Below, one piece after another: positions 2,344 through 58,459 of a stretch of 64,000 nucleotides of DNA. The position numbers and the translations under genes were made by a program. The notes under the pieces are model-generated. The model ran no database searches. It had not been told where the DNA came from and saw only the letters and a list, made by a program, of their open reading frames with translations. Origin of the DNA: a phage; sequence record PZ809289.1; one strand, 5' to 3'. Position 1 is the first letter of the stretch. Each line of letters begins with the position of its first letter.

Positions 2344-2588
2344 TATTCGTCGTCCTCGTCATCATCCGCATCGTCAGATTCTTTTTTGTCTTTCTTATCT
2401 GCTTTATCGGATTTTTCGTCGTCTTCGTCATCTTCGTCAGCTTCTTCGCCTTCAATCATAACGGAGCGAGCAATTTCTGCTTTACGGGCTTCAATCAAAG
2501 CGGTTACTCGAGATTCGATAAGCGGGGCTGCTGCTTTACGAACTGCTACGAGGTCGTTTGATTTAATAGCTTCGATTAAATCTTCCAT
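2343..2588 (-). CDS. 67: Prohead core protein gp67
   Basis: 81 aa with poly-acidic C-terminal tail; position between 68 and 20 as in T4. Confidence 0.7.
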
Positions 2589-4162
2589 TAGAAATCCTCT
2601 TCTTCTTCATCTGGGTTTTGGAAACGAGCCTCTTTAGACTCTTCTTCAATTTGCTTAGCTTCTTGATTAATTTCTTCGTCGGTCATTTGGAGGAAATCTT
2701 TCATAGCCGTTTGATGTGAAATATACTTACCAATAAATGGTTCAGCCATCGTTAGCATATTGATTCTGCGTTCCATGATTTCAGCATCTTTCATTTCACT
2801 GAAATAGCTATCACGGTTAAACGTAACTTTAATATTATTTATTTCCTTTTCCCACTCATCTTCTGTAATAATCTTTTTAAGAATGAGGTTTGTTTTTAAC
2901 GGGTCTAGGAAAATTTCTTCAAATTTGTTTTGTAGTTGACGAATCCATTTAGAGAATTTTAATTCGTCACGAGTGATTGCTGTACCGGCATCAAACATAA
3001 CACCAGAATTAGACTCGCTAGGGATACGTGATTCAGGAACACGCAACGCACGGTAAAGTGCTGTGCGGAAATAAAGAACGTCATCCATATCACTCATACC
3101 AGTAGCACCTGGCATTGTATCAACTTCTGTTACCGCTTTACCATCACGACGTTGCAACCAATAGTCTTCAGTCATGGACATATTGTGTTGTTGGTTTTTA
3201 ATTTTACCTGTCGAAGCATCATACACCACACGGTTTTTCATCGTGTTCATGATATGTTGCATTTGTGCTGCAGCCTTACGTGAAGGCATATTACCTGTAT
3301 CGATATAAAACACACGACGGTCAGGAGCACGTGTAATACGGTAGATGACCATTGCGTCTTCCATCAATTTAAGCTGGTTTGCAGGCTTAATAGCACGTTG
3401 CAAATAGCCAATGATGTTTTTACCACAACAATCTAATAATCCAGAATGAGCATAAACCACTGCAGCACGAGGAATTTTAACTTTAGTCCCGGCTGAATAA
3501 ATGCGTCCATCAGCGCAATAACTTTCATGGCCTGTATCATAAACGAAAAACTCGCGATATCCGTCTACAACTTTAACGCCATCTTCCATACGTGTAACGA
3601 TTTCACGAATATATTGGACCTGGCGTGGGTCTAAGCGACGAAGCTCTTGTACGCCATCTTTCATTTTTTTAGGGTTTATAATTTTATGAAAGAAAATTCT
3701 TGAGTCTACATACCAGCGTTGGAAATGGTCAGTACCTTTACGTTGGAAATTTAAAAGGTTTAAAACTTCACTGAATTCGGCCAAGATTTTATCTTTAATT
3801 GCTTGACTAAATTCTGTCCCGTCTAAATTCAATGCAACTACTTCTTTATCATCCTCATAGACAATAGCGTCAGACACAATTTCCTGTACGGCGTTGTCGA
3901 CTTCATAGTTGTTCATTAAATTACGGTAGGTATCAATAAGTTCCCTGGTATTTTTAACTTCAGGCTCATTACTACCAAACATCTGTTGCATAAGAGCATT
4001 ATAAGGAATATTTTGCTCTTGTGTCTCAATTTCGCGAGCGCCATCATCAAGCTTAGGTGCGGTGACAGACTCTAAATTGTTATTAATTTGTTGTTTATAT
4101 TCTTTTTCGTCTTCATTAGCCCATGGCTTAAGAAAACTTAATATTGTATTAAAGTTTGCCAT
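2588..4162 (-). CDS. 20: Portal vertex protein gp20
   Basis: 524 aa, same length as T4 gp20; synteny. Confidence 0.9.
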
Positions 4163-4210
4163 TAGAGTCTCCGATGAATGGGATAAGGAGCCGAAGCTCC
4201 TTGATAATTC

Positions 4211-4218
4211 TATTTATA
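4211..4218 (-). promoter_or_regulatory. Late promoter TATAAATA upstream of gene 20
   Basis: tatttata on plus strand. Confidence 0.6.
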
Positions 4219-4219
4219 C

Positions 4220-4711
4220 TCATTCCCACCAATCGATAGCGAACGTAGATTCGAAAGTTTCTACCTCGTTGTTGCTGTCCCAATCCATCTGGACTTCACC
4301 AACGTTAGTAGGCCATAAGCCGTAAATTGTAACTTCTTTGGTCACAGTCTTGCCGTCACGATGGAACTGGCGAACTACTGCTTGTTTCTTATATTCTGCA
4401 GGTGCTGCACCGGTAATTTCATTGGTCATACCGTGACAGAGATTCTGCCAATCGACAATTGCTTGACGGGTGTCATGTGCATCATCGTTATAAATGGTAA
4501 TGGTCCAATCATCAAACGTACGGTCACCGGCTACGTTAATTTTACGGTTCATGTAGCCAACCGGTACTTTTTCTACAATGCCTGCCGGCATAGGTGCTGC
4601 TTTACATTTAAAGCTAAAGTTTTTACCCAGAAATGGAATTTCCACTTCGAAAAGGTTAGGGCGTGCAAAGTCACCTGACTCAAACGCACGAGTGATATCT
4701 GTCAACTCCAT
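4220..4711 (-). CDS. 19: Tail tube protein gp19
   Basis: 163 aa, same length as T4 gp19; synteny. Confidence 0.9.
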   Translation of the reverse strand: MELTDITRAFESGDFARPNLFEVEIPFLGKNFSFKCKAAPMPAGIVEKVPVGYMNRKINVAGDRTFDDWTITIYNDDAHDTRQAIVDWQNLCHGMTNEITGAAPAEYKKQAVVRQFHRDGKTVTKEVTIYGLWPTNVGEVQMDWDSNNEVETFESTFAIDWWE

Positions 4712-4763
4712 GGGATGCCTCTTAAGTCAGTTCCTGGACACACCAGGAACGTTCTGATTAATT

Positions 4764-4771
4764 TATTTATA
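4764..4771 (-). promoter_or_regulatory. Late promoter TATAAATA upstream of gene 19
   Basis: tatttata on plus strand. Confidence 0.6.
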
Positions 4772-4848
4772 ACAGTTGATAAATCATATTCCTAAAGAAT
4801 AATCAATCCCAGGCGCAATTCTACGTGATGTACGCTGTAACCAAACTC

Positions 4849-4880
4849 ATGGTATAATGGTTTTAGGTTCTTTATATTAC
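4849..4880 (+). promoter_or_regulatory. Extended -10 promoter-like element on plus strand inside late-gene cluster
   Basis: ATGGTATAATGGTTTTAGGTTCTTTA; would read antisense through the HNH gene. Confidence 0.3.
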
Positions 4881-4918
4881 AGCCTGGGATAATAGATTAT
4901 ACTAATAATATAATTTAT

Positions 4919-5575
4919 TTAGGATAGTAAGTCCCATAAGTCTATTGAACTAGACTTACTTTTAGCTCTATTGGATTCCCAAGTGATTATTTCTAAATTT
5001 GATAATTGTCCAATTATCTCTGCTGGGATATGGTTATAGAACCCATAAGCTACTGAAACCTTATGGTCTAATTGGTAAGCACCTTCAACTCCACATAACC
5101 CTATTTTATCTGCATTTTCCCAAGCCATCCATTCATCTTTACAAGCATAAGTAACAGCTCTAACCTTTGCTGCGTAGGCAAAGTACTCTGATTTATTAGG
5201 GTTCCATCTTGGATGGTTTTCACCTTGCATATGAGGTAGAGTTTTACCTTTATTAGCTTTACCGTGGGTGTTACCTATAAGAGCTTCGTGACGCCTACAA
5301 GGATAACATACATCGGTATTTCTAGCAATCCTTTGTTTGAATTCTGTGCCACATTTATCGCAGATACATTGAACTTCTTTATTAGAACCATCCTTTAAAT
5401 CAGAAACTTTTGCTCGAATAGTTTGGCACTTATGCCCATGCTTCGGTGCTCCTAGAGGTTCCAACTCATACCCTAAGTCTAAGAAATAACTGTAATTGTT
5501 AGTATTTATTTTTACATCAACAAATTTAGTAATAATCACTTTAGAAATCCTTGCGCGTATTGTGTATACGCGCAT
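4919..5575 (-). CDS. Free-standing HNH-family homing endonuclease (mob-like) inserted between genes 19 and 18
   Basis: 218 aa; N-terminal Cys cluster (CICDKCGTEF...CYPCRRH) and C-terminal HNH/HNN-like motif (QLDHKVS...SNLEIITWESNRAKS); absent at this position in T4. Confidence 0.7.
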   Translation of the reverse strand: MRVYTIRARISKVIITKFVDVKINTNNYSYFLDLGYELEPLGAPKHGHKCQTIRAKVSDLKDGSNKEVQCICDKCGTEFKQRIARNTDVCYPCRRHEALIGNTHGKANKGKTLPHMQGENHPRWNPNKSEYFAYAAKVRAVTYACKDEWMAWENADKIGLCGVEGAYQLDHKVSVAYGFYNHIPAEIIGQLSNLEIITWESNRAKSKSSSIDLWDLLS

Positions 5576-5603
5576 TATACCATAAAGCTTAGAGCAAGTA
5601 AAC

Positions 5604-7586
5604 TTAAACTAGTGGTCCAATCAACTCGTCAAAATCTGCACCGGTAGAAGTAGCTACGAAATTAAGAGTGATATAATTTATCGATCTCGCCGGTTTGATG
5701 TATATATTAGCAATAAACTCGTTACGGTCGATAACCGCAGGGGTGTTCACTGTAGTATCACAAACCACACGTCCTTCATAAATCCCACCAAGTGCCTTAA
5801 TACCATCTAAGTACTGAGAAACTTCCATACGGAAGCTTGAACGAGTGAAGTTGTCGTTCAATTCAAACAGTTTATATTTAGAGGCATCACCGATATTTTT
5901 CTTAAGCATGTTGAACAGACGGCGAACGTTAATATGGTCCATCGGAGATGGAACTTTAGTTGCAGTCTTATCACCAAACAATACGAAACCATCGCCACCA
6001 GCAAAACCAACAACTGGGTTAATAGCTTCTTGGTACATGCGGTCACGTTGAGCTTGACGTGGTTCAATTGCCAATTTCAGAACGTTAAGAATCTGGCCAC
6101 GGTTATAACCTGCCGGGGACATCCAAGGCTGAGAAACATCATCTGTACGCGCACACAAACCAGCCATATCAGCGGCCAGAGGCACCCAACGGTTTACGTC
6201 ATTATATTTGTCATACTGATATTTATAGTTACCATCAATAGCAGCATAAGTGGTGCTAATGTTCATGTTGTTGGTATCGAAAGTACCTGCACCGGTACGC
6301 CAGTCGATAAGATTATCTACTGCACGAGTCAATGGAACGTTAACCAACAGTCCTTTAGGAGGAGAAATAAATGCCAAGCAATCCTGACGTTCATCAGCAA
6401 TACTAACAACGTGTTTCTGGACGGTAGAAGCAACTTCATCACCTTCACCGGCAACGGCACCAGCAATCAAAAGGTTAATATGGAGTGCTTCACGGTCGGC
6501 AAACAAATCCCAACCCTGCATCAAATCACTCGCAGTAACCTGATCGTTAGCAGATACACCACCCATAAGATTAATGATACCACTGAAGCCTTTAGGCCAG
6601 TTCAAAGAGGTAGCAAAAATATAGTTAGAAGTACCTTTAGCGAAATAGTCGTCAAGATAAATGTTATTACCGTAAACGTCTTTTTCACCTTCTTTGGTAG
6701 AAAGTACGACAGATTCTACGATAGCGCCATCACGACGAACAATAATTGCGTATTGGTCATCTGTTTGCGGGCCGTAGTTAAATACTGCCTTGGCAATAGA
6801 AGCACGGGTACCACCGCCAGGATAAATATCCAGCATTTTAGAAGAACCGACATCATAAGCTGCTTTAGAAACAATTTCTACTTCTAAGGTGCTGCCAATT
6901 TCACCAGGATAAAGAGCGACCACGCCAGGCATACCAAACTGTTTAAGAGACGCTTGGAATTCTAGGGAAGTAATAGCTTCTTCACTGTTCTCTGCTTCGG
7001 TCAAAAGAATACCGGAATCGGTTACGATTTTACCAACGGTAATAGTACCAGAAACACCTGAAGAGGCAGAAGTTACTTCAGCAGTCCATGCCGGGCCGAG
7101 GTTCGGATACTGGTTTAAAGAACGTGCATAAGCAATAATTTTTGCTGATGGGATAAACACGGAAAGAATTTTACCATCCGTATCTACAGAAGTCACACGA
7201 CCTTCAGATTCAACAACAGTCTGGTTATATTTGATATTAATTTTATCGCCTACCGCATAGTTAGAACCTGCAGTAGTAATAGTGGTTTGGACGTTACCCG
7301 CTACCGGAGACGCGTTTTTAGCGAATTCACGGTTAACAACACGAACAGTACGAAGGTCGTTACCATACTGGAGGAAGTTCATACCCGACATGAAGTAATC
7401 AGCAACTTCGTTATTAGGACCTCCAAATAAGTCGACCAGTTCAACTTCATTAGTAATCTGAGTTACCTGGAAAGCAGGGCCCCACTGGAATTTACCAACC
7501 AGCGCTGCACGACCCGTTGCGTTACGAACGACAGTACTCTGTACGGACGTTTCTTTGAGCTCAATGCCCGGTGATAATAAAGACAT
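5604..7586 (-). CDS. 18: Tail sheath protein gp18
   Basis: 660 aa; MSLLSPGIELKETSVQSTVV...RDGAIVESVVLSTK...NFVATSTGADFDEL matches T4 gp18. Confidence 0.9.
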   Translation of the reverse strand: MSLLSPGIELKETSVQSTVVRNATGRAALVGKFQWGPAFQVTQITNEVELVDLFGGPNNEVADYFMSGMNFLQYGNDLRTVRVVNREFAKNASPVAGNVQTTITTAGSNYAVGDKINIKYNQTVVESEGRVTSVDTDGKILSVFIPSAKIIAYARSLNQYPNLGPAWTAEVTSASSGVSGTITVGKIVTDSGILLTEAENSEEAITSLEFQASLKQFGMPGVVALYPGEIGSTLEVEIVSKAAYDVGSSKMLDIYPGGGTRASIAKAVFNYGPQTDDQYAIIVRRDGAIVESVVLSTKEGEKDVYGNNIYLDDYFAKGTSNYIFATSLNWPKGFSGIINLMGGVSANDQVTASDLMQGWDLFADREALHINLLIAGAVAGEGDEVASTVQKHVVSIADERQDCLAFISPPKGLLVNVPLTRAVDNLIDWRTGAGTFDTNNMNISTTYAAIDGNYKYQYDKYNDVNRWVPLAADMAGLCARTDDVSQPWMSPAGYNRGQILNVLKLAIEPRQAQRDRMYQEAINPVVGFAGGDGFVLFGDKTATKVPSPMDHINVRRLFNMLKKNIGDASKYKLFELNDNFTRSSFRMEVSQYLDGIKALGGIYEGRVVCDTTVNTPAVIDRNEFIANIYIKPARSINYITLNFVATSTGADFDELIGPLV

Positions 7587-9929: not shown

Positions 9930-10795
9930 GGGTTTCTCCTTGGTGCTGGAGGCGCTGGCTCGACAGGCACTGGAATATCTTGTGAATATGTTTGAATGGA
10001 CTTACCGTCCCATTCTTTTTCTTCTACACCTCTAGGAACCACTTCGCTATCAACCGATTCGAAATTACCTTCAGGAGCGAGTTCCTTTGAGTTGGCAAAG
10101 AAATCAAGATAAATGGTTTTAATTTCGCCTTCCATTTCCTTCACAGGAGGATATAACCAACCATTAACCTCAAACATCATAGACCACTCTAAGCGACGTC
10201 TAGAAGTGGTATCACCTTCTAATTGTTCATCCATTGCTATAGATTGGAACACAATACGGATATCACGGTCAAATTTAATTTCGTTTGTATAGAGTTCAGT
10301 GATAGTTGTATTGAAGTGAGGTTGGAAATAAGGCATAATCTGTTCTACAATTTGGAACATATCATCTTGGGTTCTAGTGTAAATACCCAGTTCGAAAATC
10401 ATTTTAACCGGAGTAGGAGAATATTGGCTGACACGCTTACGTGGGTCGCCATTCTCAAATTGAATTTGTGTTCTGTTTTGAAGGGCTGTTTTATATTGTG
10501 AGTTGTAAAGCATATCAACCATTTGGAGGTTCATACGCGGAAGAACTGTTTCCACTTTAGCTTTTTGTTCGGCCCGTTCTTTAGCTGTCATATTAGGATT
10601 TGGAATATTCTGTACTGCCGTCCATTTACCTAAGTTAGCCATAAATCTTTCTTTAGAAGCATATGTAATAGGAACCTTAATAAATTTAAGTCCTGTATCT
10701 TCTCTTTGACGTGCTACTTGAACATGGGAAAATAAATCACCCATCAAAACAATATAGCGACGTAGCGAACTATTATACCAATGTCCAAACATCAA
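9926..10795 (-). CDS. 15: Tail sheath stabiliser/terminator gp15
   Basis: 289 aa; position between 16 and 14. Confidence 0.8.
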
Positions 10796-14196: not shown

Positions 14197-15723
14197 TTAT
14201 TCTACTTTAATAATAAAAAGAACGGACATTGTCCATGGACGTGTTTCGTTGGCAATAAGACCTTCACTATTCAATGTGGTATGTCCATCACGGTTCCAAG
14301 GATCGGTGGTCTCAAAACCTTCGTTGGTATAATAACTACGGTTATCCCAGTCAAGGCCTTTACGAGTACCAACATATCCGGAGTTAGCGGTGTTACCAAA
14401 AGCGCCATAGTTATCATGTTCACCAAAACCACCAGCATGTTTATGATAACGTAATGCTTGGGCTTGAACGGAAGATTGCGGGAAAGAACCAACACCATTA
14501 CCTAAACGGGCTTTACCTTTACCGTCTTCTCCTCGGTTACCGGCAATATGCGGGTTAACTTCGCCTTCAGAATATCCACCGACCATGTTAGCGCCACGAG
14601 GATATAATCCACGGAAATCTGGAATAGCACCCCACCATCCCCAACGCCCACCAACAGCATTTAAATATGCACCACCAGTGTAAGTCCCACCTACACAAGC
14701 ACGCCATTTACCAGGTATATTACCTTCATTGCCACCCCACATGCAAATAGTACCCACCGGAACGCTATCTGATAATTGGTCATGGGTAACAACATCAACA
14801 CCATTACGACGTAATGCTCCATTAACGTTTAAAGTACCCCATATTTCGCCGCCTGAAGTAGAAATAACGTTAGCATTATAAGCCAGCGCCGTATTACCAT
14901 CGCCTTGGCCTACAGTAGTAGATAAACGAACCAACCCAATACGTCCAGTATTACCTGTACGAGCTAACAAAGAAGCCGGTGTAACTGCGGCGGTATGGTC
15001 GGTACCATTAGATACCATATCCCAACCTGCGAGTTTAATAATACCGCTTCGTTCTTCGGTGGAAGTTAATGTGGCTAATCCTGCCGGAGAAATAGCGATA
15101 CCTACCGAAAGACTTCCATTACCAACCTCTGCATTGGTCGCTAAACGAACTAAACCTTCATTTGTAGTCGTTGCTGTAGAATAAACCGGTAACGCGGCCG
15201 TCGCTGCACCAATTGCCTGAGATACTTTAAGTGGGGTCATTGCTGTGGTATCATCGGTACCAGCTAATGCGGCAGGTGTAGTTGAAATCTTGATAACGCC
15301 TGTAGCGTTCTCTGTTGATAAACGGTTCTCAAATGTATAATCCATTACCGCTTTCAAAGAGGTTGCTACGATTGCAGCCTGGGGCTCTGTGCCTGCTATA
15401 GCTTCAGCGTTAGTAGCATAACGGGTGATACCTACATAAGTTTCTGTTGCCTGAGTAGGAATATCTAAACGGGCTTTTAAAGTTGCTGGAGTCACCGCAC
15501 TATAAGCATCCAATCCATCCATTACTTCTTGTGTGGTTGCAAGACGAATAATACCTTGGGATGTTTCTGTGGCTGAAGGAACATTACCTGTGACGCCGAT
15601 TAATGAAATAGTGGCCAATGCTTCTTGAACATTAGTAATATCAGGCGGGAAATTCGACCCAGTAGGGTCGAATGATTTGAATTCCGATTTATCACTAATG
15701 TGTTTTAGTGTGTTTGTTGACAT
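14197..15723 (-). CDS. 12: Short tail fibre gp12
   Basis: 508 aa; N-terminus ...FDPTGSNFPPDITNVQ and C-terminus YHKHAGGFGEHDNYGAFGN...GTRKGLDWDNRSY...GNETRPW match T4 gp12. Confidence 0.9.
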   Translation of the reverse strand: MSTNTLKHISDKSEFKSFDPTGSNFPPDITNVQEALATISLIGVTGNVPSATETSQGIIRLATTQEVMDGLDAYSAVTPATLKARLDIPTQATETYVGITRYATNAEAIAGTEPQAAIVATSLKAVMDYTFENRLSTENATGVIKISTTPAALAGTDDTTAMTPLKVSQAIGAATAALPVYSTATTTNEGLVRLATNAEVGNGSLSVGIAISPAGLATLTSTEERSGIIKLAGWDMVSNGTDHTAAVTPASLLARTGNTGRIGLVRLSTTVGQGDGNTALAYNANVISTSGGEIWGTLNVNGALRRNGVDVVTHDQLSDSVPVGTICMWGGNEGNIPGKWRACVGGTYTGGAYLNAVGGRWGWWGAIPDFRGLYPRGANMVGGYSEGEVNPHIAGNRGEDGKGKARLGNGVGSFPQSSVQAQALRYHKHAGGFGEHDNYGAFGNTANSGYVGTRKGLDWDNRSYYTNEGFETTDPWNRDGHTTLNSEGLIANETRPWTMSVLFIIKVE

Positions 15724-16388: not shown

Positions 16389-18199
16389 TATGCAATCCTC
16401 ATCCAGCGATGAACAGTTAAGTATGGTGGTAGAGTATTAACCGGGATAGGAGTGGTTCCTTGAGCCTTATTAATACTGGCTTTATCTTCACGATATTTTG
16501 TATAAGCCGGTCCTTGTGAATCAGGGTCAACTAAACACCCACCTACAAAAATAGGGCCATCGTTATCAGCAATAAGGACTTTATCATCGGTATTAAGTTC
16601 AGGGATATTCTCATATTTCAAATTAGCCACATGAGCGCCACCAGTACCGCCAGCAGTTGACTGTGGAATACCGGCAGAATCCAGATCGTTGTTATTTGCA
16701 TTAAACAAAGAACTAGCGTCAGGAGACCAACCTACCAAGAACACATCAGATAAACGCTTCCATGAACCAAAGCCCATATAAGTTTTAGGGTTATTAGGGT
16801 TCACCGTATTCTCATAGATGGTTCCTATTGGATAAACCAAATCAAAAAACGTTGCTGCTGTATCTATTGTAATATTGGACGCGGCGACCGGTTCAACGTT
16901 AGGTGCAAAAGGATTATCTACATCAGTAATACGAACCTGCCCTGTTATATCAATCGATGGGCCTTTAGAAATATAGATGTTGTTGGTATAATCCAAAATC
17001 TCATCAATTTCCATGGTAGTACCGATATCATTATTGTACCAAATTACTGTAAGAATATCGCCATGTTCAAAGTTACGTCCAAATTCGATGGATTCAATCT
17101 TGTCTTCAGGAGTCAAATTAAAAATATAGTCTGATTTAGATTGGGTCCATTGACCACCAGCATTAAAACACTCGGTAGCAGTACGACCATCAGCACCTTC
17201 ACAATAAAACGAAGGAAGTCCTGCCGTACCAGCTTGATGAAGTAATGTGCTATTCAGCATAACTTGGCAAGCATTTGGGTTGATAGGACTATTAACAGAA
17301 ATATTCAAATCTGCGGCCGATATAACATGCGAAGTATTCAAATCAGCCACGAAAGAAGAACCAGGAACAGAAACGTTTTTAGTCAATTCTGAACTTTGGA
17401 TTGTTATATCACGGCGGTTATAAGAACTGCGCCATTGAGCAAGCCCGTCATTATATGATTTGATAATAACAGTATCACCTGCTTCACAAGGATATTTTAA
17501 ACGGATGTCTTTACCATTCAAGGCAACCAATTCACCTGGTTGAGCACCCGGAGAACCGAACTCTGCAGTAGCCGCATCAAAAATATCATCAATACCGTAG
17601 AACAAATTGTTACCACGTTGCGAAACGCTTAAACTTGCTACGTTATAAGAAAGCCCTGGGAAAATGTCTAGAAAGTCTGTTTGACCTTCAGTGGCAATAA
17701 ACTGCTTAGTTGCTACAGTAGCGAGGTCGTTATTTGGAATACGGTTTACTTGCTTATTTTCAACGTATTCCCATCGTCCTGGGGCACAATAAACTAATTC
17801 AAGGTCCGAGAAGTTGCGAGCAATTTCTACTTGAGTAGCTGAACCCTTAATGGTATCACCCGTGGCAGGGATTAGGGTTACAGGGTTAGCTTGCCATGAG
17901 GAATACACATCACGTACACGGATAACAAAGTTATATTCTTCAGGAGAGCCTTTAGGAAGCTGAACGTTAATACGCCCACCTTGAGTATTAAGGGTATAGC
18001 TATGACCCATTACAGCGTTCAACAAAGCACCATCTGCAGTAGAATGCTGTTTCCAAGCGCCTGCTGCATGAGGGTTGTTGCCATCACCTAATTGGTAATA
18101 AAGCTCATTGAAGTTGTTATTAATTTTAAGACCACCTGCACGCAGGTAATCACCGGACCCGTCATCAACAGCGGAACCTACTTTTAAGTCTTGTTTCAT
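16388..18199 (-). CDS. 10: Baseplate wedge protein gp10
   Basis: 603 aa; synteny. Confidence 0.8.
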   Translation of the reverse strand: MKQDLKVGSAVDDGSGDYLRAGGLKINNNFNELYYQLGDGNNPHAAGAWKQHSTADGALLNAVMGHSYTLNTQGGRINVQLPKGSPEEYNFVIRVRDVYSSWQANPVTLIPATGDTIKGSATQVEIARNFSDLELVYCAPGRWEYVENKQVNRIPNNDLATVATKQFIATEGQTDFLDIFPGLSYNVASLSVSQRGNNLFYGIDDIFDAATAEFGSPGAQPGELVALNGKDIRLKYPCEAGDTVIIKSYNDGLAQWRSSYNRRDITIQSSELTKNVSVPGSSFVADLNTSHVISAADLNISVNSPINPNACQVMLNSTLLHQAGTAGLPSFYCEGADGRTATECFNAGGQWTQSKSDYIFNLTPEDKIESIEFGRNFEHGDILTVIWYNNDIGTTMEIDEILDYTNNIYISKGPSIDITGQVRITDVDNPFAPNVEPVAASNITIDTAATFFDLVYPIGTIYENTVNPNNPKTYMGFGSWKRLSDVFLVGWSPDASSLFNANNNDLDSAGIPQSTAGGTGGAHVANLKYENIPELNTDDKVLIADNDGPIFVGGCLVDPDSQGPAYTKYREDKASINKAQGTTPIPVNTLPPYLTVHRWMRIA

Positions 18200-33799: not shown

Positions 33800-33870
33800 G
33801 GCCCTGTAGCTGGACGGTCGAGCGAGCGACTCATAATCGCTGGATGGTGGTTCGATTCCACCCAGGGCCA
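33800..33870 (+). tRNA. tRNA with CAU anticodon (Met/Ile2-type)
   Basis: Hand-folded cloverleaf: acceptor GGCCCTG/CAGGGCC, anticodon stem AGCGA/TCGCT with loop CTCATAA, T-arm GGTGG-TTCGATT-CCACC. Confidence 0.65.
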
Positions 33871-34582: not shown

Positions 34583-34657
34583 GTCCCGCTGGTGTAATGG
34601 ATAGCATACGATCCTTCTAAGTTTGCGGTCCTGGTTCGATCCCAGGGCGGGATACCA
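34583..34657 (+). tRNA. tRNA-Arg (anticodon UCU)
   Basis: Acceptor GTCCCGC/GCGGGAT + A + CCA, T-arm CCTGG-TTCGATC-CCAGG, anticodon loop CTTCTAA. Confidence 0.7.
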
Positions 34658-36504: not shown

Positions 36505-36534
36505 GTTTACAAACCTCAGAGGACAGGGTATAAT
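36505..36534 (+). promoter_or_regulatory. Early promoter cassette
   Basis: GTTTAC, 18 bp, TATAAT; IR GAGGACA/TGTCCTC. Confidence 0.5.
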
Positions 36535-53305: not shown

Positions 53306-53866
53306 ATGATTATTGAAACAACTGAATTGTTTGGCGAACTGTCCGCTGAAGTAGTTAATAACGCAATTGAGCTTTCACAAGAAGACGATAAAATCGTACT
53401 GACTATCGCTGATATTAAACCGCTTTATGATTTAATGGTTTTAGATAGACACGATTATCTTAACGGTCGGGCTAGTGCTCCTATCGATATCAATGATGAT
53501 ATGTTTGCCTATATCTATAAAAATGAAACCGGGTTTAATCTGGAAAATGGTATTGAATGTCTGAGCATCAGCGATTCTGATAAATTCTTTGATTGTATTT
53601 TCAAACTGTTCCAGGAAGAATGCAAGCCGGAAGTTGAATGGAAAGTCCCTGGCCAAGATGCCGTGATTCGTTCTAGTGAAACCTTTGAAGGTGATGAAGA
53701 AGAACTGAATTATGATACTGAATTAACCGTGTATCAACATCAGGGCCGTGATTTGTTATCCTTGACCCAAAGACACGATGGTGAAAGTGAAGTGGTATTT
53801 ACTAAAGACGAACTAAAAGTTTTAGTCTCTTATCTGAACTCTGTTATCCCAACTATGAACTCTTAA
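53306..53866 (+). CDS. Acidic protein
   Basis: 186 aa, strongly Asp/Glu-rich. Confidence 0.5.
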   Translation: MIIETTELFGELSAEVVNNAIELSQEDDKIVLTIADIKPLYDLMVLDRHDYLNGRASAPIDINDDMFAYIYKNETGFNLENGIECLSISDSDKFFDCIFKLFQEECKPEVEWKVPGQDAVIRSSETFEGDEEELNYDTELTVYQHQGRDLLSLTQRHDGESEVVFTKDELKVLVSYLNSVIPTMNS

Positions 53867-57028: not shown

Positions 57029-57553
57029 ATGAACGCTAAAGATATTTTTTCACTCATCAATTATAACAATGGTAATTTCAAATCCGAAAAACAAAGCAAG
57101 TTCTTTAACGACGTTGCTTGTGGTAATGAGATTACTGTATCTGGAGGAGAGATTTACAAAAGCCGTTGGAACTGGATTGTTGTCATCGATTCAGTTGGTA
57201 TTGTAGAGCTCTATAAAAACACTAACAAAAAACGTACTCTTCACTGGAGTCGTGAAACCAATCAAGCTTATCAAGCTGAACGTAACAAACGTTTAATGCC
57301 TACCGAATCTGACCTGGCAAACGTTAAATCTGATATCGCTTATTTCGATAATCTGATTGCTGAACAACAAGCAGTTATTGATAAGTTTGACGAAATCAAA
57401 GCTTGTAAAGAGATTCCTGAATTTATGCGGGAATCAGTAAACGAACAGTACGCCCTCACTTCAGGTCGTATCGAGCAGTACAAATCACAACGAGCTGAAC
57501 GCCAAGCTCTGCTTCATAAATTTGAAGAGCGTTTAAAGACGGTTCTCGCATAA
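57029..57553 (+). CDS. Hypothetical protein
   Basis: 174 aa; early promoter upstream. Confidence 0.5.
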   Translation: MNAKDIFSLINYNNGNFKSEKQSKFFNDVACGNEITVSGGEIYKSRWNWIVVIDSVGIVELYKNTNKKRTLHWSRETNQAYQAERNKRLMPTESDLANVKSDIAYFDNLIAEQQAVIDKFDEIKACKEIPEFMRESVNEQYALTSGRIEQYKSQRAERQALLHKFEERLKTVLA

Positions 57554-57570
57554 ACGCTTTATACCAAGGA

Positions 57571-57600
57571 TGGTATAATGGTTCTAGGTTCTTAATTACT
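57571..57600 (+). promoter_or_regulatory. Extended -10 promoter-like element (TGGTATAAT)
   Basis: Near-identical copy at 4849-4880. Confidence 0.4.
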
Positions 57601-57616
57601 TACTGAGGAAATTATT

Positions 57617-58459
57617 ATGTCACAGGCAATTAATCAAATTCGTTCTGAAGTTAAAAAAGTTATTAAATTTGGTCGTATTCCACTGAATAAAGAAGTGGTT
57701 GAAAAGGTTTTGGCCATGATGTGGGAAAAGTTTGAAGTTTGTATTTCTGTAGATGAATTCACTAAAATATTTGACAAGACTAAAGGTTTGTTTACGTTAG
57801 AAGACCGAGTCATGAAATCTCTTCACAGGGCCGGTATGTTGACTCGTGCTAACGCCAGAATTATTCTTAGAAATTATAACAAAGGCTATGACCTCTATGG
57901 TCGTTTAATTCCAGCGATGTCATTTGATGAAGTTGTTAAAGACCTTCGTACTAACCAACGTCGTTTACTAGCACTGGGTGCTCGCCTTGCAAAAGGTCAA
58001 GATAAGCAAATGCCATTTAAGACTAATGGTTCAGGCGATTGGATTATCTTTAATATTGTCAACCAACCAGGTAACGAAAACGAGTATCTTACTTCAACTT
58101 TTAGTGGTTGTCAATATGACAACTGGAAATTCCATCTTCGATTGGCTTTGTCCGAACTCGAACGTAGTGGTATTCTTACCTTCGATAATGTTAATACCAG
58201 TACAGGCTGGCGTATTAAACTTGTTAAGCCAGGTAATGATGTTAAGAGTCATTCAGAAGCTCCTAAACCGGAACCTGTACCAGTGCGCAGCAATGAGAAG
58301 CACCAAGCTCAAATCGAGTATTTTAGCAATTTGCTTACTTGTCTTAATGTTACAATTCAACAACAAGATGATGAGATTTTCCGACTCTCTGGTCTGAATG
58401 CTAAAGCCAAGGCTGAACGTCAAAAATATATCGATATCCTAAATCTTCTTAAGGATTAA
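57617..58459 (+). CDS. Hypothetical protein
   Basis: 280 aa ORF. Confidence 0.5.
   Translation: MSQAINQIRSEVKKVIKFGRIPLNKEVVEKVLAMMWEKFEVCISVDEFTKIFDKTKGLFTLEDRVMKSLHRAGMLTRANARIILRNYNKGYDLYGRLIPAMSFDEVVKDLRTNQRRLLALGARLAKGQDKQMPFKTNGSGDWIIFNIVNQPGNENEYLTSTFSGCQYDNWKFHLRLALSELERSGILTFDNVNTSTGWRIKLVKPGNDVKSHSEAPKPEPVPVRSNEKHQAQIEYFSNLLTCLNVTIQQQDDEIFRLSGLNAKAKAERQKYIDILNLLKD

Follow-up and report, generated by a model that had tools for sequence, protein, structure and literature searches.

The genes for the tail tube (gp19) and the tail sheath (gp18) are adjacent in T4, where a 116-bp spacer with a hairpin and late promoters, and without an open reading frame (ORF), separates them. In the phage DNA analyzed here (PZ809289.1; "the window" denotes the whole stretch of 64,000 nt, whose plus-strand positions we use throughout), an additional gene lies between the two on the same strand, next to a promoter-like element that points in the opposite direction. 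This arrangement raises the question of what the additional gene is, how it came to this site and if the element belongs to it. An earlier note on this DNA had read both as parts of one mobile endonuclease cassette, in which the element could produce an antisense transcript across the gene. Our comparison keeps the cassette and separates the element from it: the locus is probably composed of a free-standing homing-endonuclease-type cassette and an independent, older resident element that resembles a middle promoter.

Judged by its sequence, the window phage is a Dhakavirus, i.e. a JS98-like T4-type phage: the region shares 99.0% identity with Shigella phage PSD9 and 94-98% with JS98, IME08, WG01, and other Dhakavirus. 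Late virion genes occupy the minus strand (434-28375) and early and middle genes the plus strand from 28421 onward, and the order on the minus strand is gp20, gp19, the additional ORF, gp18, and gp17 (terminase). The gene in question and its two neighbors are:

4220-4711, minus strand: gp19, tail tube (ORF list; annotated as tail tube at the aligned position in PSD9, JS98, and WG01)
4919-5539, minus strand: HNH-like endonuclease gene, 206 amino acids (aa) from GTG; an in-frame upstream ATG at 5575 would give 218 aa (4919-5575)
5604-7586, minus strand: gp18, tail sheath (ORF list and annotated relatives)

The 218-aa ORF that the earlier note had described is real if read from the ATG, although GTG 5539 is the likelier start; its "about 200 bp" of flanking non-coding DNA measure 207 bp on the gp19 side, and genes 18 and 19 are, as the note says, neighbors in T4.

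With the additional gene, the gp18-gp19 spacer comprises 892 bp in the window, compared to 185 bp in JS98, WG01, IME08, MX01, and most other Dhakavirus. The junction sequences place the insertion point inside the last codons of gp18, so that the original end of that gene and its replacement can both be recognized:

4906-5612, both strands: 707-bp insertion relative to JS98, WG01, IME08, MX01, and most Dhakavirus
4897-4905, minus strand: relic of the original gp18 end downstream of the insert, TTA GTA TAA (Leu-Val-stop; JS98 alignment and junction sequences)
5604-5612, minus strand: replacement gp18 end supplied by the insert, CTA GTT TAA (Leu-Val-stop; junction sequences)

The insert has a G+C content of 35.6%, compared to 43-44% for gp18 and gp19. 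The same segment is present only in PSD9, UGJNEcP3, UGJNEcP4, and QL01, together with a version in UP19 in which the middle is replaced, while about 45 other Dhakavirus records show a 707-bp gap in the alignment. Among the 51 Dhakavirus records, carriers amount to five phages of the window/UP19 type and three with a different allele, the IME540 type. Such a presence/absence polymorphism at one site among close relatives is what characterizes free-standing homing endonuclease genes. The comparison of the 19-18 junction that the earlier note had called for also shows that the gene is not universal, as it is missing from T4 and most Dhakavirus, and that T6 carries a homolog at the same junction.

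The DNA beside the insert is divergent in an otherwise nearly identical background, which can be seen best in comparison to WG01, a cassette-less phage of the species to which PSD9 has been assigned. To the left of the insert, window and WG01 differ at one position in 2297 bp. To the right, 26 differences fall into the first 96 bp of gp18 (5604-5699), followed by 0-3 differences per 100 bp up to position 6700. The 3'-terminal ~117 nt of gp18 occur as two haplotypes in Dhakavirus, and three synonymous changes in the last three codons are common to the cassette-bearing genomes.

5604-5720, minus strand: gp18 3' end with the donor haplotype, putative co-conversion tract (WG01 comparison and haplotype table)

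A cassette that came into a WG01-like genome by recombination and carried ~100 bp of donor gp18 along would be expected to leave such a pattern. The pattern is compatible with endonuclease-initiated gene conversion, without proving it. Divergent DNA next to the gene is a further feature expected of a homing gene, with the caveat that the same haplotype is found in the cassette-less phage IME08. A separate mosaic patch within gp18 (6700-7199) shows 54 differences to WG01 in 500 bp, and the gene is otherwise almost identical.

The encoded protein belongs to a family deposited in GenBank in 1994 as T6 "ORF19.1" and now represented by the uncurated PHROG 5104. A tblastn search found homologs in 241 phage records; T4 was absent from these matches, and no sequence relation to T4 proteins was detectable. 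The gene comes directly after the tail sheath gene in every examined context with an identifiable upstream gene, namely T6, RB5, IME540, S16, Thanatos-2, Acj61, phiM7, and five metagenomic contigs; in one further contig, a tube gene lies downstream of the homolog and the upstream gene could not be identified. Among these contexts are the Dhakavirus IME540 (36% identity), Salmonella phage S16, Shewanella phage Thanatos-2, Acinetobacter phage Acj61, and Sinorhizobium phage phiM7, which stands outside the Straboviridae and in which the downstream neighbor of the homolog is not the tube gene. The second Dhakavirus allele (IME540, Bp7, and vB_EcoM_005) occupies another point of the same spacer, beside gp19 and behind a late promoter. 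Patchy presence, independent insertions into one spacer and a fixed address together are the usual signature of free-standing homing genes in T4-type phages. The IME540 insert also contains a strong hairpin followed by a T-run (L014 1150-1185; GTCGCAGG..CCTGCGAC TTTTT). Its orientation is that of a terminator of anti-late transcription, and it is located just upstream of the resident promoter element, where it adjoins the late promoter that drives the IME540 allele.

Translation most likely starts at GTG 5539: the block conserved in the family and the match to PHROG both agree with it, as does a good Shine-Dalgarno sequence. The family block begins with (V/M)II(S/T)K, and residue 13 of the 218-aa reading is where the match to PHROG 5104 (E 2.9e-85) begins. 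In PSD9 and QL01, 206 aa are annotated, and the T6 record carries the remark "likely begin by GTG". The ATG at 5575 overlaps the -10 hexamer of the promoter that belongs to the gene, at the G-flanked end of this hexamer. Across 32 homologs, four cysteines (CxxC...CxxC) and the G and W of a HPRWNPNK motif are invariant, as are D158-H159, N181-L182, N190, and K193. Two AlphaFold (AF2) models with a predicted local distance difference test score (pLDDT) of 89-90 contain strands E155-159 and E182-186 and helix H187-193; the DH pair closes a strand, N181 opens the next one and N190 lies in the helix behind it. In these models, the arrangement of D158-H159, N181, and N190 is the H-N-N form of the beta-beta-alpha-metal motif, so the residues characteristic of HNH enzymes are in place. 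The N-terminal part is a treble-clef-like zinc finger, probably for DNA binding. Below threshold, the Pfam treble-clef zinc-finger model DUF4379 matches 14 of the 32 homologs, whereas HNH_4 matches one (E 9.5e-4). PHROG families annotated as HNH match with E-values of 0.025-0.09. Leucine-rich-repeat (LRR) matches were rejected as artefacts of a short IGxLxNLxxL..N motif summed over many repeats, and a full-length Foldseek comparison against PDB was uninformative. Taken together, it is reasonable, if unproven, to describe the protein as an HNH-like nuclease with a zinc finger. In this respect the earlier proposal of a mobile endonuclease-type cassette is well founded, given a gene that is optional in a few Dhakavirus, a divergent gp18 tract beside it, and a protein with a zinc finger and a C-terminal HNH-like domain, the latter supported by the motif and weak fold evidence.

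Some of the alleles at the 18-19 junction are chimeric, as seen for UP19 (L003 1020-1562) in comparison with window positions 4919-5539 and for proteins P0021, P0026, P0027, and P0037. Here, the C-terminal nuclease half and the first codons may be identical, and the zinc-finger half is of a different, shorter type. These sequences indicate an exchange of the presumed DNA-binding module between alleles.

Upstream of the coding sequence, the cassette carries a compact set of predicted regulatory signals:

5574-5603, minus strand: T4-type early (sigma-70) promoter, GTTTACT, 17-nt spacer, TGG-TATAAT (TGGTATAAT) (predicted by scan)
5553-5573, minus strand: GC-rich stem-loop of 21 nt, GCGCGTATACACAATACGCGC, directly past the -10 hexamer (sequence)
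5548-5552, minus strand: Shine-Dalgarno sequence AAGGA, 8 nt before GTG 5539 (sequence; AAGGA-N8-GTG also in two other alleles)

The early promoter, which matches the consensus at 10 of 12 positions and carries the additional TG, begins one base past the gp18 stop codon and resembles the plus-strand T4-type early promoters at 36529, 59574, and 61865. The only other TGGTATAAT nearby (4850-4858) has the inverted orientation and belongs to a different promoter type. Alleles P0003 and P0005, with 68% and 62% protein identity, share the same layout of stop codon, TTTACA, N17, TATAAT, hairpin, AAGGA, and GTG. In T6, S16, and Thanatos-2, the hairpin stands alone, and in IME540 and Acj61 a late promoter is found. 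Because the predicted start of the gene's own promoter lies inside the 5' stem arm, we infer that the hairpin would form only in RNA that reads through from gp18.

The plus-strand element has a different history. The earlier note had regarded it as part of the cassette flank, yet it belongs to the native spacer and is present in 51 of 51 Dhakavirus records, with or without the endonuclease gene. Because it also occurs in genomes without the gene, the element says nothing on mobility.

4808-4878, both strands: native Dhakavirus spacer element with the inverted repeat CCCAGGC / GCCTGGG, stable fold on both strands
4833-4865, plus strand (anti-late): middle-promoter-like site, CGCTGTA (4833-4839), N13, TGGTATAAT (4850-4858; TGG 4850-4852, TATAAT 4853-4858), GGTTTT, A4865
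4849-4874, plus strand: repeat copy 1, the 26-mer ATGGTATAATGGTTTTAGGTTCTTTA (match to copy 2)
57555-57595, plus strand: repeat copy 2, ortholog of PnrdC.7, CGCTTTA (57555-57561), N12, TGGTATAAT (57571-57579), predicted start A57586

The surrounding element (4808-4878) is likewise found in all 51 Dhakavirus records and is missing from T4 and RB69, whose 18-19 spacers contain nothing comparable to the promoter-like site. From the upstream box to about +40, this site is invariant in 11 distinct haplotypes, in which positions 4790-4808 and the gp18 end vary. The repeat that links it to the early region stands, with a small correction: the second copy had been placed one base off, and the match should read 24 of 26 positions (57570-57595) instead of 25 of 27. 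In 100 dinucleotide shuffles no such match occurred, and a gapped alignment extends the similarity to ~4831-4900 and 57553-57618 (score 49 vs. 15.9 +/- 2.4 for the null). Each genome harbors exactly two copies, and a pattern scan of IMG/VR returned known isolate genomes only, again with two copies each and no wider family.

The second copy is flanked by the nrdC.8 homolog and the next gene, and the ORF at 57617-58459 follows downstream of it. Over 47 nt (57540-57586), it is 95.7% identical to T4-type phages, and in fPS-90 it is annotated as a predicted middle promoter. The T4 counterpart reads CCGCTTTA-N12-TGGTATAAT-GGTTCT-A, with the final A at position 53325, which is the mapped start of the middle promoter PnrdC.7 (Hinton 2010; PMC2988021, Table 1). 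On this alignment, the copy at 57570 is the ortholog of PnrdC.7, a middle promoter and not an early one. The start at A4865 is predicted from the register with T4 position 53325. With TATAAT and TGn at 4850-4858, the -10 region agrees with that of T4 middle promoters (PMC2988021), and motA and asiA are annotated in JS98. That middle promoters in general conserve their initial transcribed sequence was rejected as an alternative source of the likeness: the sequences downstream of other MotA-box sites in the window are unrelated, so the similarity between 4849 and 57570 is specific. The preferred reading of the sequence at 4833-4865 is that of a middle-promoter paralog specific to Dhakavirus, with predicted function. 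Three further exact TGGTATAAT sites occur in the late region, at 10772-10780 (minus), 14325-14333 (plus), and 16984-16992 (plus); two of them are antisense inside late genes and none has a MotA-like box or a -35 match, giving a total of six sites compared to 1.0 expected.

The element has the orientation of all early and middle transcription. It faces gp18 in most Dhakavirus and the endonuclease gene only in the cassette-bearing lineage, where 54 nt separate it from the 3' end of that gene. A weak hairpin lies within this 3' end:

4937-4963, plus strand: weak AT-rich hairpin and U-run within the 3'-terminal part of the HNH gene, ~100 nt past the predicted start (fold)

That this hairpin stops some plus-strand transcripts is speculative. 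As terminator of a small RNA of ~100 nt, the hairpin (4937-4958) was dismissed: it has only two G-C pairs, does not pass the terminator scan and is part of a coding sequence specific to the allele. The 61 nt downstream of A4865 have a G+C content of 23%. An R-loop origin of the oriF/oriG type consists of a middle promoter and an A+T-rich downstream region (PMC3016281), and by analogy the element fits such an origin in its anatomy only. The nrdC.7 copy was also considered as the counterpart of T4 oriC, a match that would have tied both paralogs to origins; this idea was dropped because oriC is placed elsewhere, near rI.-1, and may depend on a late promoter (PMC3016281). We regard it as decidedly unlikely that the element is an active anti-late promoter that serves as an R-loop replication origin or yields an antisense RNA restraining the sheath gene (in carriers, the endonuclease gene) before late times. 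If it did, the endonuclease cassette would have landed beside a functional regulatory or replication element.

From the observed anatomy, polymorphism, homology and conservation, we infer nuclease activity, a target site, homing and promoter activity along the following lines. The protein encoded by the cassette would be made early, from its own promoter. In a mixed infection, it would cut a cassette-less allele near the conserved 3' end of gp18, and T4-type recombination repair would copy in the cassette together with ~100 bp of the donor gp18 end. Homing of this kind would explain both the patchy distribution and the divergent tract beside the insert. In this explanation, the plus-strand element is older than the insertion, unrelated to the cassette and a fixed part of the Dhakavirus gp18-gp19 spacer; if active, it would start near A4865 and run antisense into gp18 in most Dhakavirus or, in carriers only, into the endonuclease gene.

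Several points weigh against this explanation. Nuclease activity is deduced from motif and fold, and neither Pfam nor NCBIfam contains a curated HNH model that matches at threshold; among the homologs, no NCBIfam model was reached. Sequence profile searches against PDB returned only zinc-finger or spurious LRR matches, and all Foldseek E-values exceed 0.5, with matches to HNH nuclease folds that are weak but consistent. The strict linkage to the sheath gene across deep divergence, including a phage outside the Straboviridae, could reflect a functional tie to the locus instead of homing. Since all cassette-bearing genomes share their gp18 haplotype with cassette-less IME08, the divergent tract could stem from ordinary recombination that needs no endonuclease. 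For the element, the MotA-like box CGCTGTA deviates from the T4 consensus TGCTTtA, which it matches at five of seven core positions, and lies 13 bp upstream of the -10 region. In middle promoters, the MotA box (a/t)(a/t)(a/t)TGCTTtA precedes the -10 region by 12 +/- 1 bp, and MotA is reported to tolerate deviations (PMC2988021). The uvsY promoter of JS98 shows the same deviation (TGCTGTT with N13), resulting in the common pattern GCTGT, N13, and TATAATGG. Finally, our literature searches found no Dhakavirus transcriptome.

Some of these points lead to other explanations. The ORF might be an accessory gene moved by general homologous recombination or by the mechanism of the PeSL (promoter-early stem-loop) cassettes of RB49 and phi1, in which a stem-loop attenuates upstream transcription and a promoter drives an accessory ORF (Arbiol et al. 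2010; PMC2839356), and not by its own cleavage; the protein might then be a nuclease with another use, e.g., the exclusion of competing phages, or might be a DNA-binding protein. The early promoter and stem-loop between stop codon and Shine-Dalgarno sequence agree with this architecture (PMC2839356), IME08 has the gp18 haplotype without the gene, no curated nuclease model matches the protein, and the chimeric alleles (UP19, P0021, and others) point to frequent ordinary recombination. However, only a single PeSL-like unit is present, and the mini-circle model needs a second direct copy flanking the gene. The invariant DH..N..N motif and the HNH-type fold matches suit a nuclease, and a fixed position with patchy presence is the usual signature of T4-type homing genes, as described for MobE and SegB. 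We consider an accessory gene without self-directed mobility unlikely. The model of the earlier note, in which the element belongs to the mobile cassette and controls the endonuclease gene by antisense RNA, profits from the extended -10 region (TGGTATAAT), from a partner copy that is the ortholog of a bona fide promoter, and from the position of the element 54 nt from the endonuclease 3' end, which it faces; an early promoter opposed by a middle promoter would make a plausible early-on, later-off switch. Nevertheless, the element lies outside the 707-bp insertion and is identical in Dhakavirus without the gene, and the homologs in T6, S16, Thanatos-2, Acj61, and phiM7 lack such an element. Because the second allele (IME540, Bp7, and vB_EcoM_005) sits on the other side, with the element pointing away from it, antisense control cannot be a general feature of the cassette and is at most incidental in this lineage; as an account of the locus, it is very improbable.

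A better, if still doubtful, prospect is that the conserved feature of the spacer is an RNA structure on the minus strand that stabilizes the 3' end of the gp18 late transcript or attenuates this transcript, with the promoter likeness as an inactive relic of a duplication. Minus-strand RNA of 4800-4890 folds with -25.9 kcal/mol (z -3.4) into a Y-shaped structure with a 9-bp closing stem followed by a U-rich stretch, hairpins are found at the equivalent place after gene 18 in T4 and RB69, and the sole natural variant of the closing stem (IME341) keeps a G-U pair on the minus-strand RNA only. Yet the plus strand folds almost as well (z -2.7), and the nrdC.7-type likeness covers exactly the functional parts of a promoter with correct spacings and runs into the transcribed region; variation is too scarce for a covariation test. 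A known RNA gene within the 71-nt element closed by the inverted repeat was ruled out, as the only Rfam match at E <= 1 in 4000-6500 was a fragment of CrcZ that is due to chance, and ARAGORN found no tRNA or tmRNA near the locus. On balance, the homing-endonuclease-type cassette beside an older middle-promoter-like element remains our preferred explanation.

The remaining features of the neighborhood are:

2588-4162, minus strand: gp20, portal (aligned annotation)
4730-4750, minus strand: 8-bp hairpin in the gp19 leader, GTTCCTGG..CCAGGAAC, part of the native spacer (sequence, scan, and fold; also in JS98)
4764-4771, minus strand: T4-type late promoter box TATAAATA upstream of gp19 (sequence; same box in the 18-19 spacers of T4 and RB69, from which its late promoter function is deduced by analogy)

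The window has only a 57-bp spacer (4163-4219) at the gp19-gp20 junction, at which some relatives carry a second ORF of ~190 aa (L002 321-902 in QL01, L014 2447-3028 in IME540, and L040 1619-2191) annotated as HNH endonuclease in QL01. Tail-gene junctions of Dhakavirus seem to be repeated landing sites for HNH-type genes. Antisense within gp18, an ORF of 317 aa (5934-6887, plus strand) has the appearance of a shadow ORF, being rich in Cys, Asn, Thr, and Ile; the plus-strand promoter-like element is upstream of it, ~1 kb from its start. The early region encodes tRNA-Met (CAT; 33800-33870) and tRNA-Arg (TCT; 34583-34657) on the plus strand.

The position of the cassette is not new: GenBank has listed the T6 ORF19.1 homolog of this junction since 1994, although the gene was apparently never characterized, and our literature searches found no paper on ORF19.1. 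As such, the finding is ordinary, one more optional endonuclease gene of a T4-type phage, with the resident anti-late promoter copy as the sole unexplained item. This copy poses a small question for T4-type transcription or replication and is not yet a discovery. PHROG 5104/ORF19.1 may nevertheless be useful: found in at least 241 phage records, linked to the sheath gene and swapping zinc-finger halves, it is convenient as a natural system in which to ask how a homing-type nuclease keeps to a conserved structural gene in different genera. Because JS98 and JS10 are listed without homing endonuclease genes (PMC2993671; T6 is listed there with one "other HNH"), the 18-19 junction is also a place to follow the invasion of a previously clean genus, between the almost identical phages WG01 and PSD9.

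Compared to known systems, the plus-strand element resembles T4 PnrdC.7, with which it has a MotA-like box, the spacer, TGGTATAAT and ~40 nt of transcribed sequence in common, and it is similar to the uvsY promoter and leader of Mosigvirus up to about +32, through TACAGCC-GGGA. Unlike the PnrdC.7 and uvsY (oriF) promoters, this putative promoter lies inside the late cluster, is directed against late transcription and has no ORF downstream. The upstream region of the cassette shares with PeSL cassettes a strong early sigma-70-type promoter joined to a stem-loop in front of a non-essential ORF. PeSL units differ in their origin, the hyperplastic regions of RB49 and phi1, where the stems usually contain G/C tracts and copies occur on both sides of the ORF; the window has a single unit in a conserved virion module, without a direct copy flanking it. 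The closest counterpart is T6 ORF19.1, which belongs to the same family (43% identity to T6, 58% to the RB5 type) and occupies the same junction on the same strand, with a GTG start and a hairpin between the gp18 stop codon and the Shine-Dalgarno sequence. The window allele differs by its T4-type early promoter: the T6 gene has only the hairpin in front of it, lacks a promoter and would depend on read-through from gp18. In contrast to the usual HNH homing enzymes, the window protein has an H-N-N motif without the zinc-binding cysteines of HNH, and its homing activity is putative. As with mobE (PMC2790892) and segB (PMC2330249), a small intergenic gene beside a conserved one is distributed patchily among close relatives; and as in T4-type free-standing homing genes (mobE and seg), it has its own promoter and divergent flanks consistent with co-conversion.

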